Source: Betaproteobacteria bacterium RIFCSPLOWO2_12_FULL_62_13
GTDB taxonomy: Bacteria; Pseudomonadota; Gammaproteobacteria; Burkholderiales; SG8-41
Assembly (NCBI GenBank): GCA_001771985.1
Contig: MERG01000361.1
Coordinates: 1 to 44,653, forward strand
DNA: 44,653 bases
Reading direction: 5' to 3'
Within the stretch, counting starts at the first letter, position 1; the number at the start of each line of letters is the position of its first letter. The notes under the pieces were generated by a model. It worked only from the letters and a program-made list of their open reading frames with translations. It had not been told where the DNA came from and did no database searches. Of this stretch, positions 41-44,443 are shown piece by piece. Position numbers and translations under genes: made by a program.

Positions 41-2192
<2,152 letters not shown>

Positions 2193-5949: not shown

Positions 5950-6810
5950 TCAGGCGGATCTCGCTTTACCCAATATCCCCCGCACCGCGTCCTGCAGGTC
6001 GGCCGGCAGCAGCACGATCTTGCTGTTGTCCGAGGCCACAATCCTGTCGAGCGCGCGAATGTATTTCTCGCCCAGCAGATAGAGCATAGGTGTATCCCGG
6101 TCGCCCACCGCGTTGGCGACCTTCTGGATGGCCTGAGACGAGGATTCCGCGAGCGTGACCTGCGCGATCGCGTCGCGCTTGGCGCTCTCGAGCCGACCCT
6201 CCGCTCCAAGGATCATCGCCTGCTTTTCTCCTTCCGCCTTGGTGACTACCGCCTTTCTTTCCCGTTCGGCGGCTGCCTGCAATTCCATCGACTTGACCAT
6301 GGATTCCGAGGGCTTGACGTCTTGAATCTCGACCGACTTGATTGTCAGTCCCCAGTCGATCGCCTCGTCGGAGATCATTTCTCTCAATCTGGCCTTGATC
6401 TTCTCGCGCGAGGACAACGCCGCGTCGAGTTCCATCTCACCGATGATAGACCGCAGCGTGGTCTGCACCAGATTGCGGATCGCCTCGGCGAAATCAGTTA
6501 TGCCGTAGACCGCCTTGACAGGATCGGTCACCTTGATGAAGGCGATTGCATTGGTGATGATCACGGCGTTGTCCCGGGTGATCACCTCCTGCTCCGGAAC
6601 GTCAAGGATGATGTCCTTGGTGACGACCTTGTACGCCACCTTGTCAAAGTAGGGAATGATAATGCTCAGGCCGGGGTGCAGCGTCTGATTGAACTTGCCG
6701 AAGCGCTCGACGATCCACTCCTCTCCCTGCGCCACGATCCTGACGCCTTTCCAGACTGTGACTGCGGCAAATATCAGGATCGCGACCGCGACGATGGTTC
6801 CGATTTCCAT
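5950..6810 (-). CDS. SPFH/band-7 (stomatin/paraslipin-like) membrane protein
   Basis: N-terminal TM helix followed by an SPFH domain (VRIVAQGEEWIVERFGKF...ITRDNAVI...). Paired with the NfeD gene upstream. Confidence 0.85.
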   Translation of the reverse strand: MEIGTIVAVAILIFAAVTVWKGVRIVAQGEEWIVERFGKFNQTLHPGLSIIIPYFDKVAYKVVTKDIILDVPEQEVITRDNAVIITNAIAFIKVTDPVKAVYGITDFAEAIRNLVQTTLRSIIGEMELDAALSSREKIKARLREMISDEAIDWGLTIKSVEIQDVKPSESMVKSMELQAAAERERKAVVTKAEGEKQAMILGAEGRLESAKRDAIAQVTLAESSSQAIQKVANAVGDRDTPMLYLLGEKYIRALDRIVASDNSKIVLLPADLQDAVRGILGKARSA

Positions 6811-8198: not shown

Positions 8199-8530
8199 CA
8201 AGTTCATCCCGTGCTCGTCGTCGACGAGGCCCAGCACCTGCGCAACGACGTCCTCGAGGATCTGCGGCTGCTCACCAGCTACGCCATGGACCCGGAGCGG
8301 CGCCCGTGTCTGCTGCTGGTCGGCCTCACCGAACTGCGCCGGCGCTTGATGATGGCCGTGCACGAGTCGCTCACCCAGCGCATCGTCGTGCGCTACCACT
8401 TGAGCGGGCTTACCCGCGAGGAGCTGCCCGCCTACCTCTCCCATCGCCTGCAGCTCGCCGGCTGCTCGCTCCCGTTGTTCGAGCCCGCGGTGATCGAGGC
8501 ACTGTTCGAGGCCACACAGGGCTTGCCGCG
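8199..8530 (+). pseudogene. ExeA/TniB-like AAA ATPase fragment (no Walker A region, C-terminus lost)
   Basis: VLVVDEAQHL (Walker B), LEDLRLLTS, LLLVGLTELRRRL, QRIVVRYHLSGL and GLPR follow the ExeA-like pattern. An in-frame stop lies at 8196-8198 beside the IS hairpin. Similarity is lost after ~8530. Confidence 0.6.
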
Positions 8531-9135
8531 CAACTCGTCGATCTGCTCCACGAACTCATCACCGGCATCGAACACCACTACGCCGCACAGATCCACCGCT
8601 ACCACAAGCGGCAGCGAGAAATCCGCCACAGCCGACAGCATCGACAAGCGCAACCCTCAACGCCTAACGATCCTCCATTCTGAGTCCCGCCGCGCAATGC
8701 CCGAGCGCCCTCGGCCGTGCCGTCTCTACCACTTTGCACCCCCACCCCCCAGCATTGCAACACCCGCTGGCTCTATGCGAGAGACGACTCACCTCGCGTC
8801 ACGAAATAGCGTAAGAGATCGCCGGTCAAATAAACAGCGAGACAACAAACGTGCCGGTGCAGCATCCCCTGCTCCCGCTGCCCTTGATCGCCACGCCTGG
8901 CAGCAGCATTGTCGTGCCTTGTTTCAGACGCCGATCGCCGCCTGAGCAACAAATCGCCACCGACAGACGGCAACAGACAAACCGGCCCTACTGCCACCGC
9001 GCCGCATCTCGATTTTACCGGTAGCGGAGATTGTCTGAGATCAAGTCCCGACTTCTACACTTCAGAAAATCCTGTACCGTCATGCCGGTGCCTTTGGCGA
9101 TCTGGCGCACCACTTTTTGTGACGCCCCGCACCGG

Positions 9136-17922: not shown

Positions 17923-18001
17923 GTGTTGAATGTTGAATATTCAGTGTTGAGCGATCCCGGACAGGTTCCACTTAACGCTTACCACCAAACACTCAACACT
18001 G
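17923..18001. repeat. Heptamer repeats GTGTTGA ATGTTGA ATATTCA GTGTTGA (17923-17950) with a perfect 10-bp stem CAGTGTTGAG (17942-17951) / CTCAACACTG (17992-18001)
   Basis: Read directly. It fills most of the 108-nt spacer between tRNA-Arg and tRNA-His. Confidence 0.85.
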
Positions 18002-18712: not shown

Positions 18713-18791
18713 GGTGAGGCGTGAAGCGTGAGGAGTGAGGCGGAAATCCGCCGTCATCCACCGCCCTGCGGTTGACCCTCACACCTCACAA
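18713..18791. repeat. Heptamer hairpin module: GTGAGGC GTGAAGC GTGAGGA GTGAGGC (18714-18741), central GGCGG-aaat-CCGCC stem, pyrimidine arm ending CCCTCACACCTCAC
   Basis: Read directly. It starts 1 nt after the dksA stop, in the convergent dksA/pnp spacer. Confidence 0.85.
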
Positions 18792-22808: not shown

Positions 22809-22820
22809 CTTCGATGAGCG

Positions 22821-22895
22821 GCTAGGGGCTAGGAGCAAAACCAGAGGTGCGGCTCGGCTTGCTCCAGTCCCTAGCCCCTAGCCTCTAATCCCTAG
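22821..22895. repeat. Heptamer hairpin module: GCTAGGG GCTAGGA.. (22821-22838) pairing with ..CCTAGCCCCTAGC (22859-22882, 13 perfect bp plus AGCAA/TTGCT), then extra units CTCTAAT CCCTAG overlapping the infB stop
   Basis: Read directly. It occupies the 83-nt infB-rbfA spacer. Confidence 0.9.
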
Positions 22896-27668: not shown

Positions 27669-28271
27669 ATGGACGAGCTAACCCCGCGCCAGACACAAAT
27701 CCTGGACCTGATCAGGAAACATATCGCCAATTCGGGTTTCCCGCCGACGCGCGTTGATATCTGCCGCGCCCTGGGCTTCCGCTCCCCCAACGCTGCAGAG
27801 GAGCACTTAAGGGCGCTCGCCCGCAAGGGTGCAATCGAGATACTGGCGGGGGCCTCGCGCGGCATCCGGCTGAAACAGGCGCCGGGTATCCCGGTGGTTG
27901 GCCGGGTCGCCGCAGGCAGTCCGATTCTTGCCGAGCAGCACATCGAGGGCCGCTACCAGCTCGACCCGTTGCTGTTCAAGCCGCGCGCCGACTATTTGCT
28001 CAGAGTCAGGGGATCGAGCATGCGTGACGCGGGCATTCTCGACGGTGATCTGCTGGCAGTGCACCGCACACAGGAATTCAGGTCGGGACAGATCGTAGTG
28101 GCGCGCATTCATGATGAGGTCACCGTCAAACGTATCCGCCGCCAGCGCCACCTTGTCGAACTGATCCCGGAAAACCCGGCGTTTAAGACCATCACGGTGG
28201 ATTTACGCCGTGATCCGCTGGTGATAGAAGGTGCCGCGGTCGGCGTGATCCGCAATGGCAAAGCACTGTGA
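27669..28271 (+). CDS. lexA: LexA repressor
   Basis: N-terminal winged HTH ([16 protein letters not shown]...[32 protein letters not shown]), cleavage-site region VAAGSP, and Ser/Lys peptidase domain ([11 protein letters not shown]...VKRI). Confidence 0.95.
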
Positions 28272-28308: not shown

Positions 28309-28422
28309 CATCGAACCGCCGATGAACGCAGATGAACGCTGATAAAACCACAACAAAAACATGGGATGATGATTTCTGCTTTTCTATCGGCGTTAATCGG
28401 CATCTATCTGCATTTAATCAAC
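28309..28422. repeat. 10-nt-period repeat hairpin module: GATGAACGCA GATGAACGCT GATAAAACCA (28321-28350), with partially complementary TCTATCGGCG TTAATCGGCA TCTATCTGCA TTTAATCAAC (28383-28422)
   Basis: Read directly, in the lexA-imuA spacer. The 5' 26 codons of tracked ORF 28366.. are translated repeat. Confidence 0.8.
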
Positions 28423-28443
28423 TTTCCTGATTTTGTTCTATCC

Positions 28444-29136
28444 GTGGCTGCGCCTACGCTCGATGCCGTCCTGAATCACCCCGCTATCTGGCGCGGCAAC
28501 GACTGCGCGCGGGTGGCGGTGCCGAGCGTGCCGACCGGCTTTGCCGAACTCGACGTGCTGCTGCCGGGCGAAGGCTGGCCGAGCGGAGCGCTCACCGAGA
28601 TTTACTTCGAACGCCCCGGCATCGGTGAGCTACAGCTGGTGATGCCGGCCGCTGCGCGCCTTACCCGGGCCGAGCGCTGGCTGGCCATGATCGCGCCGCC
28701 TTGCATTCCCTACGCTCCCGCGCTTGCTGCGCACGGTGTGAGGTTATCGCGCCTGATGCTGCTTCAACCGAAAACTGCCGATGAGCAGTTATGGGCGTGC
28801 GAGCAAGCGCTCCACTCGGAAAACTGTGGAGCGGTGTTGGCCTGGATGAATCGCATCCAGGAACGTGCCATGCGTCGCCTGCAGCTTGCCGCGGAGCGCG
28901 GCGGCACACTTGCCATGTTGTTTCGCCCGGCTCGCGCCACTGCCTTCCCGTCAGCGGCGTTGCGGTTGCACGTCAGCAAGGCGGACGGCAGGACCATCGT
29001 GCGCATCCTCAAGCGGCGCGGGGGTGGCATCTCGGCACCCGTCGCGCTCGATCTGTATGGCGAAGTGAATAGGCGTCCGATCACATCGCCCCGCCCTGCG
29101 GTTGTCCTCCCCTGCCTTCCGGCACCGGCACATTGA
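28444..29136 (+). CDS. imuA: ImuA (SulA/RecA-fold translesion-synthesis accessory protein)
   Basis: HPAIWRGNDC...PTGFAELDVLLPGEGWPSGALTEI...GIGELQL matches the ImuA pattern, and the gene sits before imuB-dnaE2. GTG 28444 is proposed; the start is uncertain (28366 in the track). Confidence 0.8.
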   Translation: MAAPTLDAVLNHPAIWRGNDCARVAVPSVPTGFAELDVLLPGEGWPSGALTEIYFERPGIGELQLVMPAAARLTRAERWLAMIAPPCIPYAPALAAHGVRLSRLMLLQPKTADEQLWACEQALHSENCGAVLAWMNRIQERAMRRLQLAAERGGTLAMLFRPARATAFPSAALRLHVSKADGRTIVRILKRRGGGISAPVALDLYGEVNRRPITSPRPAVVLPCLPAPAH

Positions 29137-29160: not shown

Positions 29161-30606
29161 ATGTTGTGGCTGGCGCTACATTTCCCCCGTCTTTCGCTCG
29201 AGATATTTACACGCGGCACGCGCAAGCCCGGCCCTCTGGCGGTCGCTTCCTCGCCCGGCAGCAACGCGACTATCGTCGCTTGCGACCGGCAATCATATGC
29301 GCGCGGCGTGCGTTGCGGCATGACGGTTTCCGCAGCGTGGGCGCTGATCTCGGAACTCAAGATCATCGCGCATGACGAAGCCGCCGAGCGTGCGGCGCTT
29401 GAACGCATTGCCGTCTGGGGATTCCAGTTCACGCCGGCGGTGAGCATTGCCGCCCCGGCGGAGTTGCTGCTTGAAGCAGGAGGGTCGCTCAAGCTGTTTG
29501 GAGGCTTAAACCGGATGCATCAGTGCCTCGAGCGGGGTCTTGCGGAACTCGGTTATAGCGCCTCTGCGGCCTATGCGCCGACACCGCTCGCGGCACAACT
29601 CTTTGCGCGCGCCGGCCTGTCCGTGCGGATACAGCATCGCGATGTGCTGCGTCACGAACTTGAAAAGCTGCCGGCTTCCCTGCTCGATCGCCATTCCGAA
29701 ACTGCGGCGATGCTCGAGAGTTTCGGCATTCATACCATCGGCGAGTGCCTGCATTTGCCGCGCAGCGGACTGGCGCACCGCCTGGGCCAGCGTCTGCTCG
29801 ATGATCTCGACCGGGCGCTGGGCAAGCGGCCCGATCCCCGGCCGCCTTTCATTCCGCCGCCAGGCTTCACAGCATCACTCCCGTTGCCCGCGCCGGTTGA
29901 ACAGGCGGAAGCTCTGCTGTTCGCTGCGCGGCGCCTGCTCACCGAGCTGTGCGGATGGCTTGCCGCAACCGGTAATGGCGTGCAAAGCCTGCGTTTTACA
30001 CTGGTGCATGAAGATCATGCCGACACGCAGATCGTCATGAAACTGGTTGCGGCAAACCGCGACCTCGAACACTTGACTTGCGTGCTGCGCGAACGTCTGG
30101 TGCGTATTGATCTGCCCCGCGCGGTAACCGCTATCACGCTCGCTGCAGAGCAGTTTCAACCGCTTGCTTCGCACAATCTGTCATTTCTGCCGGATGCTCA
30201 TATTCATGCCGAAGGCATTGTCCGGCTCATTGAACGCCTGCGCGCCCGTCTCGGTGACGAGGCCGTTTGCGGTTTGACCGCCTTTCCCGATTACCGGCCA
30301 GAGCGCGCCTGGCGCATCTGCGAGCCGGGTAACGACGCCGCGCCTGAGGAATTGCAAGCCTTTTTTTCGCGGCCCCTGTGGTTGCTCGCCTCACCCCGGC
30401 CGCTCAGGGAAATCGCCGCCATACCGCACTACGCTGGGCCGCTGTCGCTGCTCGCCGGCCCCGAGCGCATCGAGGCGGGCTGGTGGGACGGGCATGATGT
30501 TGCGCGTGACTACTTTGTCGCCAGCAATCCCGTGCAATCACTGTTGTGGATTTACCGAGAACGCAGTGCGGCGGGCGGCTGGTATCTGCACGGCTTCTTC
30601 GGATGA
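29161..30606 (+). CDS. imuB: ImuB (Y-family DNA polymerase-like protein)
   Basis: MLWLALHFPRLSLE, a UmuC/DinB-like fold, C-terminal ...GWYLHGFFG typical of ImuB. Located between imuA and dnaE2. Confidence 0.88.
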   Translation: MLWLALHFPRLSLEIFTRGTRKPGPLAVASSPGSNATIVACDRQSYARGVRCGMTVSAAWALISELKIIAHDEAAERAALERIAVWGFQFTPAVSIAAPAELLLEAGGSLKLFGGLNRMHQCLERGLAELGYSASAAYAPTPLAAQLFARAGLSVRIQHRDVLRHELEKLPASLLDRHSETAAMLESFGIHTIGECLHLPRSGLAHRLGQRLLDDLDRALGKRPDPRPPFIPPPGFTASLPLPAPVEQAEALLFAARRLLTELCGWLAATGNGVQSLRFTLVHEDHADTQIVMKLVAANRDLEHLTCVLRERLVRIDLPRAVTAITLAAEQFQPLASHNLSFLPDAHIHAEGIVRLIERLRARLGDEAVCGLTAFPDYRPERAWRICEPGNDAAPEELQAFFSRPLWLLASPRPLREIAAIPHYAGPLSLLAGPERIEAGWWDGHDVARDYFVASNPVQSLLWIYRERSAAGGWYLHGFFG

Positions 30607-30623
30607 AAACCAAGCCTTAGCCA

Positions 30624-30720
30624 CAGAGAAAGAACGCGAAAGGCATAAGAAGCAAAGAATATGGGGTGCTGTTCTGTTCACTCCTTTCTCCTCTCACCTC
30701 TCTCCTCTCGCTCTTTCAAG
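30624..30720. repeat. Purine tract (30624-30660, AGAGAAAGAACGCGAAAGGCATAAGAAGCAAAGAA) followed by 7-nt-periodic pyrimidine tract CACTCCT TTCTCCT CTCACCT CTCTCCT CTCGCTC (30679-30713)
   Basis: Read directly, in the imuB-dnaE2 spacer. Arm complementarity is only partial. Confidence 0.7.
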
Positions 30721-30725
30721 CTCTT

Positions 30726-33700
30726 ATGCTTCCCGCCTACGCGGAACTGCACTGCCTTTCCAACTTCACCTTCCTGCGCGGCGCCTCCCATCCGGAGGAA
30801 CTGGTTCAGCGCGCGCATGAACTGGGCTATAGCGCGCTCGCCATCACCGACGAATGCTCGTTTGCCGGTGCAGTCCGGGCTCACGTCGAGGCCAAGAAGT
30901 ACGGTCTGAAACTCATCATCGGAACCGAAATCAGGCTCGTCGACGGATTGAAGCTCGTGTTGCTCGCCATCGACCGCGAGAGCTACGGTCATCTCTCGGC
31001 GCTCATTACCCGCGGCCGGATGAATGCCTCGAAGGGAAGTTACCGTCTTGCGCGCGCTGATCTCGAACAGAACCTCGACGGCTGCCTCGCCGTCCTCGTT
31101 CCGCCGGCCTTGCCGGCTGCGAATCTCCCCATTCCTACCCTCACTCCTGACCTCTCTCCCAGAGGGAGAGAGGAAGCTCGAGCCTCCCTTCTTCCCCCGG
31201 GAGAAGGGTCGGGGATGAGGGACCGAGAAGGGCCGGGGGTGAGGGAAAATGAGATTCTTCAGCATGCGCGCTTCGTCGCTGAGCGCTTTCCGCATCGTGC
31301 CTGGATCGCCGCCGAGTTCTTGCACGGGCCCAATGATCGAGCCCGGCTCGCCGCGCTGCGCAAGCTGGGTAAAAGCACCGGTCTGCCCCTGGTTGCCGCC
31401 GGCGACGTGCACATGCACGTGCGCTCGCGCAAGGCGCTGCAGGACACGCTGACCGCAATCCGTCTGGGCATGCCGGTGCACGCACTTGGGCATGCGCTTT
31501 ACCCCAACGCCGAACAGCATTTGCGGCTGCGGCTGCGGCTCGCGCAGATTTATCCTCCGGATCTGCTCGCCGAAACTCTGCGCATCGCCGAACGCTGCGA
31601 TTTCTCGCTCGACAGCCTGCGCTACGAATATCCCGACGAGATCGTCCCTGAAGGCCTTACGCCCGCGAACTATCTGCGTAAACTGACCGAACAGGGCCTT
31701 GCCCGGCGTTTTCCGCAGGGTGCGCCCGCCCATGTGCGCAACCTCATCGAACACGAGCTCAAGCTCATTTCGGAACTCGAGTATGAACACTTCTTTCTCA
31801 CTGTGCACGACGTCGTGCAGTTCGCACGGTCCCAAGGCATCCTCTGCCAGGGACGCGGCTCTGCGGCGAATTCGGCGGTGTGTTACTGCCTCGACATCAC
31901 CGAAGTCGATCCCGCCCGCATGAACGTGCTGTTCGAGCGTTTTATCTCGCGCGAGCGAAACGAGCCACCTGACATCGACGTCGATTTTGAGCACCAGCGG
32001 CGCGAGGATGTCATCCAGTATGTGTACAACAAATACGGCCGCGATCGCGCCGCGCTGGCGGCGACCGTGATCACCTACCGTCCACGCAGCGCCTTGCGCG
32101 ATGCCGGCAAGGCGCTCGGGCTGGAACTGGCGCAGGTCGACCGGCTGGCCAAATCGATGATGTGGTGGGACGGCAGGCGGATCATGCCGGAGCGCTTGCA
32201 GCAGGCCGGCGTCGACATCGACAGCCCCGTGATCCAGCGCCTGATGATGCTGGTAAACGACCTTGTCGGTTTCCCGCGCCATCTGTCTCAACATGTCGGC
32301 GGTTTTGTGATTTCCCGGAGTCCCTTGTCGCGCCTCGTGCCGATCGAGAATGCGGCAATGCCGGAACGCAGCGTTATTCAGTGGGACAAGGATGACCTGG
32401 AGGCGCTTGGCTTGCTGAAAGTGGATGTGCTGGCGCTCGGCATGCTGTCGGCAATCCGGCGTGCGCTCGAACTCGTGAATCGCTATCGCGGCGGATCGCT
32501 CACGATGCAGGAGATACTCGATCGGGGGGACGACAGGGCAGTTTTTGAAATGATCCGGAAGGCGGACACCATGGGTGTATTTCAGATCGAGTCGCGCGCC
32601 CAGATGTCGATGCTGCCACGGCTGAAGCCCGAGAAGTTCTACGATCTCGTCGTCGAGGTGGCAATCGTGCGGCCGGGGCCGATCCAAGGGGGCATGGTGC
32701 ATCCCTATCTGCGCCGCCGGCAAGGCTTGGAGGCCGTGACCTATCCCTCCGATGCAGTCAAACAAGTGCTGGAGCGCACCTTGGGCGTGCCGATCTTTCA
32801 GGAGCAGGTCATGCAGTTGGCCATGGCAGCGGCCGGATTCACTCCGGGCGAAGCGGACGGACTGCGGCGCTCGATGGCAGCGTGGCGGCGCAAAGGCGGA
32901 TTGGAGCATTTCCATCCCCGCCTCATCAGCGGTATGCGGAAGCGTGGGTATTCGCAGCAGTTCGCCGAGCAGATCTACCAGCAGATCTGCGGCTTTGGCG
33001 AGTACGGTTTTCCCGAGTCGCATTCCGCGAGCTTCGCCCTGCTTGCCTATGTCTCCTCCTGGCTCAAGTACTATGAACCCGCCGCTTTTCTCGCCGCCAC
33101 GCTCAACAGCCAGCCGCTCGGCTTCTATTCCCCTTCCGAGCTCGTACAGGACGCGCGCCGGCACGGCGTCGAGGTGCGGCCTGTGGACGTCGCCGTGAGC
33201 GACTGGGACTGCATGCTCGAGACCCCCTCGGACGCTCTTGATAGCGATGAAAATGGTTATTTAGAAGCATATAGTCATGAAATAGCCCTCGACACAGACC
33301 GCCAATCACCAATCACTAATCACCAATCACGCCCTTCAACCCCAGCCGTGAGGCTGGGGTTGCGGATGACAAAAGGCCTCACCGAAGCCGGCGCCGAGCG
33401 CATCGTCACTGCGCGCAACGCCGCGCTGTTCGAGGACGTCAAGGATCTCGCACGTCGCGCGCGGCTCGACCGGCACGACCTGCGCAACCTCGCCGCAGCG
33501 GGCGCGCTCGCCGCGCTTTCGGGGCATCGCCACGCGGCACATTGGGCAAACGCCGGCATCGACACCGCACCCGGACTGCTCGAGGATGCGCCGGTCCGCG
33601 AGCCGCTGCCGCAACTCGTCCTGCCAACCGAGGGCGAGAACATCGTCGCCGATTACGCAAGCCTGGGGCTGACGCTCGGGCGCCATCCGCTCGCGCTGCT

Positions 33701-34046
33701 GCGCCGCCGCTTGTCGCGCATGCGGCTCGTCACCGCCGCCGATCTTTCGCGGCTGCCCCACGGCCGGCTCGCGCGCACCGCCGGCATCGTCACCTGCCGC
33801 CAGCGTCCAGGCACGGCGAAAGGCGTGGTGTTCGTCACCTTGGAGGATGAAACGGGGTACACCAATGTCGTCGTATGGAACAAGCTGGTGGAAAAACAGC
33901 GGCGCGAGCTGCTCCATTCAAGCCTGCTCGGCGTAGAAGGCGAGATTCAGCGCGAGGGTGAGGTCGTGCACCTTGTCGCCCATCGTCTTGTCGATCACAG
34001 CCGGTTGCTCGGCAGACTGGTCACGGAGTCGAGGGATTTTCACTGA
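30726..34046 (+). CDS. dnaE2: Error-prone DNA polymerase III alpha-like subunit DnaE2 (ImuC)
   Basis: MLPAYAELHCLSNFTFLRGASHPEELV (PHP domain), polymerase core, an HhH region and an OB-fold C-terminus (GVVFVTLEDETGYTNVVVW). Internal ATG 30726 of ORF 30666..34046. Contains two repeat-derived in-frame segments. Confidence 0.95.
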   Translation: MLPAYAELHCLSNFTFLRGASHPEELVQRAHELGYSALAITDECSFAGAVRAHVEAKKYGLKLIIGTEIRLVDGLKLVLLAIDRESYGHLSALITRGRMNASKGSYRLARADLEQNLDGCLAVLVPPALPAANLPIPTLTPDLSPRGREEARASLLPPGEGSGMRDREGPGVRENEILQHARFVAERFPHRAWIAAEFLHGPNDRARLAALRKLGKSTGLPLVAAGDVHMHVRSRKALQDTLTAIRLGMPVHALGHALYPNAEQHLRLRLRLAQIYPPDLLAETLRIAERCDFSLDSLRYEYPDEIVPEGLTPANYLRKLTEQGLARRFPQGAPAHVRNLIEHELKLISELEYEHFFLTVHDVVQFARSQGILCQGRGSAANSAVCYCLDITEVDPARMNVLFERFISRERNEPPDIDVDFEHQRREDVIQYVYNKYGRDRAALAATVITYRPRSALRDAGKALGLELAQVDRLAKSMMWWDGRRIMPERLQQAGVDIDSPVIQRLMMLVNDLVGFPRHLSQHVGGFVISRSPLSRLVPIENAAMPERSVIQWDKDDLEALGLLKVDVLALGMLSAIRRALELVNRYRGGSLTMQEILDRGDDRAVFEMIRKADTMGVFQIESRAQMSMLPRLKPEKFYDLVVEVAIVRPGPIQGGMVHPYLRRRQGLEAVTYPSDAVKQVLERTLGVPIFQEQVMQLAMAAAGFTPGEADGLRRSMAAWRRKGGLEHFHPRLISGMRKRGYSQQFAEQIYQQICGFGEYGFPESHSASFALLAYVSSWLKYYEPAAFLAATLNSQPLGFYSPSELVQDARRHGVEVRPVDVAVSDWDCMLETPSDALDSDENGYLEAYSHEIALDTDRQSPITNHQSRPSTPAVRLGLRMTKGLTEAGAERIVTARNAALFEDVKDLARRARLDRHDLRNLAAAGALAALSGHRHAAHWANAGIDTAPGLLEDAPVREPLPQLVLPTEGENIVADYASLGLTLGRHPLALLRRRLSRMRLVTAADLSRLPHGRLARTAGIVTCRQRPGTAKGVVFVTLEDETGYTNVVVWNKLVEKQRRELLHSSLLGVEGEIQREGEVVHLVAHRLVDHSRLLGRLVTESRDFH
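31138..31245. repeat. 108-bp REP-like palindrome cluster inside dnaE2: CCTCTCTCCC-aga-GGGAGAGAGG (31151-31173), CCCTTCT..AGAAGGG, and GGGTCGGGGATGAGGG / GGGCCGGGGGTGAGGG
   Basis: Read directly. It translates as TLTPDLSPRGREEARASLLPPGEGSGMRDREGPGVRE. The length is a multiple of 3. Confidence 0.8.
33238..33362. repeat. Composite module inside dnaE2: AT-rich purine-biased arm (33238-33287), (CAATCAC)2 TAATCAC CAATCAC (33303-33330), then a perfect 11-bp hairpin CAACCCCAGCC-gtga-GGCTGGGGTTG (33337-33362)
   Basis: Read directly. It translates in frame as DSDENGYLEAYSHEIALDTDRQSPITNHQSRPSTPAVRLG. Confidence 0.85.
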
Positions 34047-34049
34047 ATG

Positions 34050-34081
34050 AAAAAGCCCAGCGTTGCCAGGCTGGGCTTTTT
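34050..34081 (+). terminator. Rho-independent terminator after dnaE2 (A-run/T-run flanked, potentially bidirectional)
   Basis: AAAAGCCCAGC-gttgccag-GCTGGGCTTTT, a perfect 11-bp stem starting 5 nt after the dnaE2 stop. Confidence 0.85.
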
Positions 34082-34134
34082 CATAACATGGGCGCCCTGT
34101 GACGGAAAACAATCAGGGCGCGATACAAGAACTC

Positions 34135-44334: not shown

Positions 44335-44387
44335 TATCCGGAAGAAGTAGGGTTTGAATGTATGTAACACGATCGTGACGAGGAGGG

Positions 44388-44422
44388 CTCTTTACCCTTT
44401 ACCCTTCACCGTTCACCCTTCA
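44388..44422. repeat. Five tandem heptamers CTCTTTA CCCTTTA CCCTTCA CCGTTCA CCCTTCA in the 23S-5S spacer, preceded by a purine-rich, weakly complementary stretch (44342-44387)
   Basis: Read directly. Confidence 0.85.
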
Positions 44423-44443
44423 CGGGCGCAGCACACCCGCTCA

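Follow-up and report, generated by a model that had tools for sequence, protein, structure and literature searches.

Heptamer repeat DNA in frame in a hypervariable loop of DnaE2, an error-prone polymerase of uncultured Burkholderiales

How does tandem repeat DNA with a unit of seven nucleotides come to lie inside the open reading frame (ORF) of a conserved DNA polymerase, and does it serve any purpose there? This question is raised by a 44,653-nucleotide stretch of the genome of Betaproteobacteria bacterium RIFCSPLOWO2_12_FULL_62_13 (GenBank assembly GCA_001771985.1, contig MERG01000361.1), referred to here as the window. Within its dnaE2 gene, positions 33238 to 33362 hold, in frame, an AT-rich stretch, an array of four heptamers, and a hairpin. 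A first-pass annotation of the window had described this segment as a lineage-specific insertion of spacer-type repeat DNA, tolerated or co-opted by the gene and conceivably acting as a phase-variable switch. Comparison with orthologues leads us to a related but different reading, which we hold with moderate confidence: genomic repeat DNA makes up the segment, a hypervariable loop on the surface of DnaE2, and is carried in frame as a tolerated passenger.

A permissive loop filled with repeat DNA

By its profile matches and its setting, the host gene is that of DnaE2 (ImuC), the error-prone C-family polymerase of a LexA-linked imuA-imuB-dnaE2 cassette, as the first-pass annotation had proposed. 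The predicted protein scores 1505 bits against the DnaE2 profile NF004225, well above the cut-off of 939 bits; the best DnaE model reaches 611 bits, below its own cut-off of 1002 bits. The four heptamers and the perfect 11-bp hairpin with its GTGA loop are present at the positions given by that annotation (Table 1), and six bases (GCCCTT) separate the array from the hairpin. Tandem Repeats Finder (TRF) reports the array with a period of 7 and 4.1 copies, and a search with a 14-mer of the array pattern, allowing up to two mismatches, returns three matches against 0.22 expected, a number reached in none of 100 shuffles. The segment reads through in frame to give the peptide that the annotation quoted; the gene's frame is the sole open frame across it, the other two holding 3 and 6 stops. 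Of the two properties ascribed to the first arm, the AT-richness is clear (Table 1) and the purine bias is weak (57%).

The window can be compared over 10,113 bases with locus L161, from another, independent assembly (ENA ERZ4903185); identity there is 99.92%. The two differ by 8 single-nucleotide polymorphisms (SNPs), all outside the segment, with no indels, and L161 likewise has four heptamer units. Because the segment is identical in this independent assembly, it is not an assembly accident, and the artefact that the annotation had named as a possible refutation finds no support.

The position of the segment in the protein is unusually free to vary. When the 120 best full-length homologues are aligned, no part of the protein varies more than the one between the W-x-C-x-L-E and A-V-R-L-G-L motifs. 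Both flanks were located by tblastn in 166 loci, which allows loop lengths to be compared: 21 nt (7 aa) is the commonest, found in 64 of the 166, against 123 nt (41 aa) in the window. Similarly, the alpha subunit of E. coli Pol III has 16 aa between the corresponding anchors (residues 816 and 833) compared with 54 in the window protein, and it realigns from residue 833, the start of the G-I-G-A-I-K-G-V-G helix-hairpin-helix (HhH) region. The annotation had described a short variable loop at this site, and these comparisons bear it out.

An AlphaFold model, built on 73 sequences and with a mean predicted local distance difference test (pLDDT) score of 70, agrees with this picture. Residues 836 to 869 have pLDDT values of 31 to 37, well under 50, and no secondary structure, and they are flanked by short strands at residues 830 to 832 and 874 to 876. 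The model thus predicts that the insert projects, disordered, from the tip of a beta-hairpin just before the HhH motif. Judged by alignment and model together, the loop site is permissive, and the view that the gene tolerates the insertion stands up to the structural check that had been suggested for it.

The expectation that the segment would prove lineage-specific does not hold: homologous arrays occur across a large clade, and three other lineages also have the AT-rich arm. Peptides such as SPVTGHRS, SPITHHPS, and HESRVTSHAS occupy the loop in many orthologues at 68 to 83% identity, and the DNA of these loops consists of NNNTCAC heptamer arrays, read in all three phases. Unit number varies widely. 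The window has four units and L164 five (CAGTCAC three times, CAATCAC, CAGTCAC), and further counts are about 12 in L163, about 10 in L168 and L081, about 9 in L171, about 7 in L165, and about 2 in L166. In most relatives the array is degenerate rather than perfect. In nearly all bearers it ends in ...TCAC GCC TTT C.., followed by codons for S-x-P-A-V-R-L-G.

Arrays at this same site are found in a large clade of uncultured Burkholderiales DnaE2 proteins, down to about 68 to 70% identity. A neighbor-joining tree from which the variable loops were left out brings the array-bearers together in a single large group; the loops of the outgroups are 6 to 7 residues long. This distribution fits one old origin of the clade-wide arrays, with later spread by recombination also possible. 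A deep-branching DnaE2, P0067 (68% identical), carries SPITNHQS in this loop (loop 2), with peptide and unit type as in the window, and its insert at a second loop (loop 1, described below) resembles those of the window and of P0002. On sequence likeness, the resemblances of P0067 hint that loop sequences move between lineages by recombination.

Turnover of the array and the reading frame

Although the array is maintained across the clade, the loop that contains it changes quickly. Proteins that are 94 to 96% identical elsewhere have loops that are almost unrelated to each other (P0023/P0027, P0003/P0053, and P0071/P0080). The clearest single step is seen between L172 and L173: across 4.6 kb their DNA is 98.4% identical, and the sole gap, of 21 nt, corresponds to exactly three GATTCAC units (four versus one). 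Further, loop lengths are multiples of three in 166 of 166 loci. No frameshifted dnaE2 was found among 173 loci searched by whole-gene tblastn, flank frames being compared in 166 of them, although these loci were chosen as best full-length matches, and broken alleles are therefore under-sampled.

These observations suggest how a heptamer array could persist in a coding sequence. Heptamer repeat DNA, which is abundant in the lineage, would occupy a permissive loop of a non-essential, SOS-induced polymerase, and the array would grow and shrink there by replication slippage. Selection for the C-terminal HhH and OB domains would purge changes that are not multiples of three, and the changes that persist would be 3-unit steps (21 nt, 7 aa) or compensated indels only. 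A 7-nt repeat would then survive in the permissive loop because selection passes only 21-nt steps, each adding a 7-residue repeat. The resulting S/P/T/H/Q-rich peptide would be a passive disordered linker with no required function.

The same instability could in principle be put to use. In a contingency (phase-variable) locus, slips of one or two heptamers would turn the SOS mutagenic polymerase off and later on again, leaving the population heterogeneous for induced mutagenesis. The unit of seven nucleotides is not a multiple of three and lies inside the ORF, and the tract does slip in relatives, as the 3-unit gap indicates, so one-unit slips should be at least as frequent. In one of the shifted frames, moreover, the loop of the hairpin contains a TGA, with the conserved ATG of ...L-R-M following after 15 nt, and 23 of 147 database fragments are exactly 226 aa long counted from that ATG, some of them on contigs of 22 to 105 kb. 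Against this, the array has four units, and with an imperfect third one no more than two identical units stand side by side; the 99.92%-identical second assembly has the same unit count; none of the 173 loci is frameshifted and every one of the 166 loops is in frame; the only unit change between close genomes keeps the frame; the arrays of relatives are mostly degenerate; and the tract comes 78% of the way along the ORF rather than close to its 5' end. We therefore consider a contingency locus very unlikely. The switch that the first-pass annotation had thought conceivable is possible in principle, and it finds no support in the alleles compared.

The 226-aa ORFs deserve separate mention. In the clusters that contain them there are also fragments whose start is some other Met or Val codon within the gene, and because of these other internal starts the 226-aa ORFs are probably gene calls made at the first start codon. 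Their pile-up is probably a gene-calling or contig-end effect on fragmentary contigs. Among the fragments (P0121 to P0267, on contigs that span 1 to 105 kb), P0162, from a 105-kb ENA contig, clusters at 90% or more with the full-length P0241. In its fuller form, in which a slip leads either to a stop at the TGA or to restart at the ATG and a two-piece DnaE2, the tract would be a heritable, reversible switch of the SOS mutasome; we judge this highly improbable.

Hairpin, AT-rich arm, and recombination patch

The hairpin is well beyond chance. Perfect hairpins with 11 bp or more and loops of 3 to 8 nt number six in the window, compared with an average of 0.075 in second-order Markov simulations, and the segment has a better fold than its shuffles (z = -3.5). 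The two arms of the hairpin differ in origin: the (S)TPA codons that close the insert make up the 5' arm, and the 3' arm consists of the conserved (V)RLGL codons and is not inserted DNA. At homologous positions, 11 of 11 pairs form in the window, 10 in L166 and L081, and 9 in L165, L170, and L088. Other relatives form 4 to 6 of the 11, which is the background level (short loops average 5.1), and the relatives closest to the window in the tree are among those without the hairpin. The inner six pairs (CCAGCC/GGCTGG) follow nearly automatically from the common P-A-V-R-L-G codons, whereas the outer five are perfect in the window only. L088 has, in an unrelated allele, a small hairpin on the R-L-G codons after a big module.

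Several known kinds of element were considered and rejected. A terminator scan is empty at 33337 to 33362, and the tail, CGGATGAC, is without a T-run, which argues against an intrinsic terminator. The 6-nt spacing and the stem would fit a programmed -1 frameshift site, but there is no X XXY YYZ heptamer before the hairpin. An intein or intron is excluded by the segment being in frame and too short. Against Rfam 15 we obtained two matches at chance level (18.8 and 18.6 bits, with gathering scores of 55 and 70).

If the segment is a tolerated passenger, the 11-bp hairpin would be a by-product, its inner 6 bp coming nearly free with the P-A-V-R-L-G codons. The outer 5 bp, perfected by two synonymous changes, may owe their state to chance, to quasi-palindrome template switching, or to weak selection. 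In E. coli, quasi-palindrome template switching perfects an imperfect inverted repeat by using the other arm as template. Such mutagenesis would account for a perfect stem in which conserved codons form the 3' arm.

The AT-rich arm has homologues only at the same position of L165, L166, and L170 (proteins P0009, P0010, and P0037), at about 70% identity. The first-pass annotation had treated this arm as part of a repeat, a claim that finds no support: a short-word BLAST search with four versions of the arm turned up no further copy, whether in the window or among 171 loci, and without a second copy the arm is not a dispersed element. RNA folds of the window, L165, and L170 show no pairing between the arm and the heptamer array. 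The arm contains a weak sigma-70-like match (ATGAAA-17-TATAGT at 33247 to 33275, 9 of 12 positions), the sole match in 1.3 kb where 0.1 is expected. The -10 part of this match recurs in L166; the -35 part is unconserved in L165, L166, and L170. No terminal inverted repeats or target-site duplication were found around the insert, a repeat search of 33150 to 33450 returning only the 11-bp hairpin and short chance pairs.

P0009, P0010, and P0037 are not the closest relatives of the window protein overall, and the comparison along the gene resolves this. Over a patch of dnaE2 that includes the loop and the HhH region (Table 1), the window DNA is 80 to 94% identical to L165 and L166 and 57 to 79% identical to L162 to L164 and L167; outside the patch, the ranking is reversed. 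At the protein level, sliding windows over residues 180 to 820 and 1021 to 1106 give 87 to 95% identity to the P0002 to P0007 group, whereas residues 872 to 1020 are 77 to 81% identical to P0022, P0009, P0020, and P0010 and 62 to 70% identical to the P0002 to P0007 group. The patch has 72% GC, compared with 59 to 62% in its flanks, and within it the loop is more diverged (50 to 70% identity) than the rest. This switch of identity along the gene indicates that the loop, the AT-rich arm, and the hairpin came together from another DnaE2 lineage, by recombination of a patch some 0.6 kb long. Among the genome and metagenome matches listed, no relative of the loop exceeds 73% identity, and a protein search with the patch gave short fragments only.

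A mosaic of this kind could also be imagined as a sequencing or assembly artefact, such as a chimeric contig that produced the patch. The source data are of metagenome type, in which repeats and strain mixtures can form chimeras, and the GC content of the patch differs from that of its surroundings. However, the two assemblies, although 8 SNPs apart, share an identical module and mosaic, and the ORF is intact; homologous arrays, AT-rich arms, and hairpins come from independent JGI, ENA, and NCBI studies; and the patch is only 80 to 94% identical to its nearest relatives and so was not spliced from a co-assembled genome in the data. An artefact is accordingly extremely improbable.

The tyrosine-rich peptide encoded by the AT-rich arm raises a different possibility, that the insert has been co-opted as a functional linker or as a motif at which ImuB, the beta clamp, or some other partner docks, through a motif such as N-x-Y-L-x-T-Y-x-Y-E-N or through the S/P/T/H-rich repeat. 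The peptide is recognizable in P0001, P0009, P0010, and P0037 amid fast turnover, and the loop adjoins the HhH DNA-binding motif. Yet it is absent from all but these 4 of about 267 DnaE2 sequences inspected, and is missing even from close relatives of both lineages (for example, P0020 and P0022). Conservation is similar at the DNA and protein levels, without an excess of synonymous change, the loop is predicted to be disordered, and loops are unrelated even between proteins that are otherwise 94 to 96% identical. Co-option of the peptide thus seems quite unlikely to us.

Several observations weigh against a purely passive segment. The array persists across the clade and the TCAC GCC TTT C... 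that follows is conserved, so something may be selected; the AT-rich arm is about 70% conserved in four lineages within a loop that otherwise turns over fast; broken alleles are under-sampled among the loci compared; and a good number of database ORFs (the 226-aa ORFs) have their start at precisely the Met that follows the loop. The hairpin supplies the remainder. Relative to L165 and L170, the window has two synonymous differences (ACN to ACC, and CTG to the rare TTG) that close mismatches in the stem, and L166 attains the same pairing via G-C, a compensatory pair. In hairpin-bearing alleles only, a rare AGG or AGA Arg codon gives the loop its GNRA-type (G-N-N-A) form. The synonymous stem-closing changes are suggestive, as far as the alleles compared can tell.

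These features would fit a cis-acting nucleic-acid element within the gene, consisting either of the hairpin, with or without single-stranded heptamers, acting on the mRNA or of the AT-rich arm acting as a DNA element. Such an element might pause the ribosome between domains, serve as a protection, processing, or protein-binding site, or provide an internal promoter or a site for a nucleoid protein. In addition to the compensatory pair and the rare AGG and TTG codons, the perfection of the hairpin far beyond chance, the fold of the segment, the small hairpin of L088 on the same R-L-G codons, and the isolated promoter-like match in the AT-rich arm speak for it. Covariation does not: over 14 orthologues, 63.6% of cells are paired versus 62.6% in shuffles, and 126 of 500 shuffles score as high, a difference that is not significant. 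The closest relatives in the tree pair at background level, codon usage explains the inner 6 bp, and the segment has neither a T-run, nor a slippery heptamer, nor an Rfam family; the -35 part of the promoter-like match is, as noted, unconserved. We regard a cis-acting element as unlikely, and continue to favor a tolerated passenger.

Repeat modules elsewhere in the window and in other systems

Heptamer tandem arrays, many of them inverted pairs that fold into long hairpins, are frequent in the transcribed spacers of this Burkholderiales lineage. Period 7 is singled out in the window, with five arrays detected and none at periods 4, 5, 6, 8, 9, or 11. Four of the six spacer arrays (Table 1) are pairs of inverted arrays that fold into a long hairpin (z from -3.3 to -5.3), and each locus has its own unit (for example, CAATCAC in dnaE2 and GAAGGAT, GTGAGGC, or CCCTAGC elsewhere). 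The claim that the dnaE2 segment is built like these spacer modules holds in part. Kinship of the heptamers is supported, as NNNTCAC arrays also occur in spacers of this genome and of relatives, and the imuA-imuB spacer of L081 has the very unit CAATCAC beside an AT-rich GGAAATR array. The long hairpin of two inverted arrays is not found: the dnaE2 array lacks an inverted partner and is single-stranded in the predicted fold. Heptamer arrays are present in the imuB-dnaE2 spacer of L163, L167, L168, L001, L166, and L081 as well, and period-7 arrays are denser in loci with long loops (6.65 per 100 kb) than in the rest (1.72).

Table 1. Positions of the segment, its host gene, and related features in the 44,653-nt window
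Feature	Position	Strand	Evidence or remark
Spacer array between two minus-strand genes	about 507-620		Unit GAAGGAT, six copies at 509-550; inverted pair
Spacer array between tRNA-His and tRNA-Arg	17924-17996		Inverted pair
Spacer array after dksA	18714-18790		Inverted pair
Spacer array after infB	22820-22895		Inverted pair
lexA	27669-28271		TIGR00498
imuA	28366-29136		NF033429
imuB	29161-30606		481-aa imuB-type gene
imuB-dnaE2 spacer: purine-rich AT stretch and CCTCTCN array	30620-30725	+	Without inverted partner
dnaE2, host gene (error-prone DNA polymerase of 1106 aa)	30726-34046	+	NCBIfam NF004225
Second in-frame repeat-derived insertion, PHP-domain loop, residues ~131-176	31116-31255	+	C-rich and G-rich inverted arms
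Recombination patch with loop and HhH region	~33160-33800 (boundaries approximate)	+	Identity ranking, GC
Whole variable loop, 41 codons, between W-D-C-M-L-E and A-V-R-L-G-L motifs	33222-33344	+	Orthologue alignment
AT-rich arm, encoding DSDENGYLEAYSHEIALD	33238-33295	+	36% GC; core 33240-33284, 29% GC; gene, 63%
Heptamer array, CAATCAC four times (third unit TAATCAC), translated QSPITNHQS	33303-33330	+	Pattern search, TRF
Perfect hairpin, loop GTGA	33337-33362	+	Arms 33337-33347 CAACCCCAGCC and 33352-33362 GGCTGGGGTTG; 11/11 complementary
Spacer array between 23S and 5S rRNA genes	44375-44423		Without inverted partner

Complete inverted heptamer hairpins do occur in frame in the DnaE2 loop of two other loci, L088 (z = -4.7) and L004 (z = -3.0). 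The unit of the L004 loop (2799 to 2901) is GAAGGAT, the same as that of the intergenic module near the start of the window (509 to 620). The repeated A-GGA-U of this unit might be likened to the GGA sites of CsrA/RsmA-type regulators, which we offer as an idea only. In a Thiobacillus metagenome-assembled genome (L014, about 8330 to 8620), the same loop that holds the window's array has a 291-nt in-frame insertion composed of several GC-rich CCCCTCTCCCC/GGGGAGAGG hairpins and translated as ...SPLRGEEW...PLSPQAGRGEK....

Two further loops of DnaE2 accept DNA of this kind. The insertion at loop 1, in the PHP domain, contains a perfect 10-bp hairpin (31151 to 31173) and a 24-nt duplication (31201 to 31246), and residues 130 to 169 have pLDDT values below 50. 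It is homologous to the insert of L162 and partly to those of P0008, P0012, and P0067; most orthologues have about 8 residues there. At the loop-1 position, L127 has (GGGGACA)4 plus its inverse. A third site, after ...EEGFRWRFG (about residue 330), holds in-frame heptamer arrays in L105 (4993 to 5030) and L112 (4911 to 5012); TCAC arrays are found in both, with the units GAATCAC and GAGTCAC in L105.

In the cassette, lexA, imuA, and imuB precede dnaE2 in that order (Table 1), with profile matches for LexA and ImuA and an IMS domain in the relatives' counterparts of the imuB-type gene; relatives have the same imuA-imuB-dnaE2 layout. We place the dnaE2 start at the ATG at 30726 (MLPAYAELH..., MLPAYAELHCLSNF...), replacing the GTG at 30666 of the mechanical ORF list. 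One base past the stop codon, at 34047 to 34084, lies a perfect 15-bp hairpin (ATGAAAAAGCCCAGC / GCTGGGCTTTTTCAT) with A/T runs on both sides, which looks like a candidate bidirectional terminator. Transposase genes or fragments (IS66, Transposase_mut, DDE_Tnp_1_6, and IstB) are found beside or within the imuAB-dnaE2 cassette of several relatives (L163, 7465 to 9358; L167, 7421 to 8695; L165, 3426 to 3686; L168, 8284 to 8553). L168 also has a ParE/RHH toxin-antitoxin pair 3' of dnaE2, and L098 has a duplication of the last 51 dnaE2 codons (6583 to 6735) about 0.9 kb downstream of the intact gene.

If the segment is a tolerated passenger, repeat DNA of spacers can settle in a conserved enzyme and stay there for a long time. 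The three DnaE2 loops can be marked as accepting such DNA, which helps annotation, alignments, and protein engineering; for annotation, the marking is useful because long low-complexity inserts at these places are not errors. The loops also evolve quickly enough for use as markers of strains in metagenomes. Were the switch real, it would link repeat instability to the control of stress-induced mutagenesis, and lineages would carry subpopulations with and without inducible mutagenesis.

The nearest known relatives of the array are heptameric simple sequence repeats (SSRs). Such repeats have been described as over-represented between the genes of large high-GC genomes, an excess that is unexplained (PMC4692102; see PMC4679880); according to Rehm et al. 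2015 (PMC4692102), it was first noted in a survey of 2007. The window adds a case to this excess in high-GC bacteria, here with inverted arrays in rRNA, tRNA, and operon spacers. The GGGNATC repeats of Xanthomonas and Nostoc (PMC4692102), the short tandemly repeated repetitive (STRR) heptamers of heterocystous cyanobacteria, and the TAACTGA repeats of Beggiatoaceae (PMC4679880) resemble the present arrays in their unit of 7, in having a few to tens of units (commonly about 4), and in lying mainly in transcribed spacers between co-oriented genes. Unit number is likewise strain-variable, a few copies lie in ORFs, and mechanism and function are unexplained. Unlike those repeats, which have one genome-wide consensus, each locus here has its own unit; many loci here are two inverted arrays that form a hairpin, and CAATCAC/GTGATTG cannot form a G-quadruplex. 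Further, a whole clade has kept the array considered here, and its host is a conserved enzyme.

Rickettsia palindromic elements (RPEs) and MITEs (transposable elements of the miniature inverted-repeat type) provide a second comparison (PMC10969869). There, too, intergenic-type repeat DNA is found in frame in conserved genes, at sites compatible with the fold, and QMITE1 of Coxiella burnetii is among the in-frame MITEs listed in that review. RPEs and MITEs are dispersed, with a consensus of 100 to 150 bp, inverted ends, and a conserved peptide. In contrast, the segment in dnaE2 has no terminal inverted repeats and no target duplication, its AT-rich arm is single-copy, and its tandem array changes in place.

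Proteins of Borg elements (PMC9879509) share with this DnaE2 their fast-evolving in-ORF tandem repeats, which encode low-complexity disordered peptides at the same place in homologues. However, the in-ORF units of Borgs are all divisible by three, whereas the unit here is 7, triple steps keep the frame, and all three phases are read within one repeat peptide (QSPITNH). The contingency loci of Haemophilus, Neisseria, and Helicobacter (e.g., PMC12721329) do have non-triplet units inside ORFs, where a one-unit slip shifts the frame. Those loci are long perfect tracts with on and off alleles in sister strains, usually near the 5' end, where known phase switches cluster according to Rehm et al. (PMC4692102, citing Lin and Kussell); the tract in dnaE2 is short, imperfect, near the 3' end, and in frame. 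Set beside these systems, what is new here is a non-triplet unit that survives by triple steps, in an array that changes in place and that persists, with continual turnover, for the length of a clade in a loop of a conserved polymerase.

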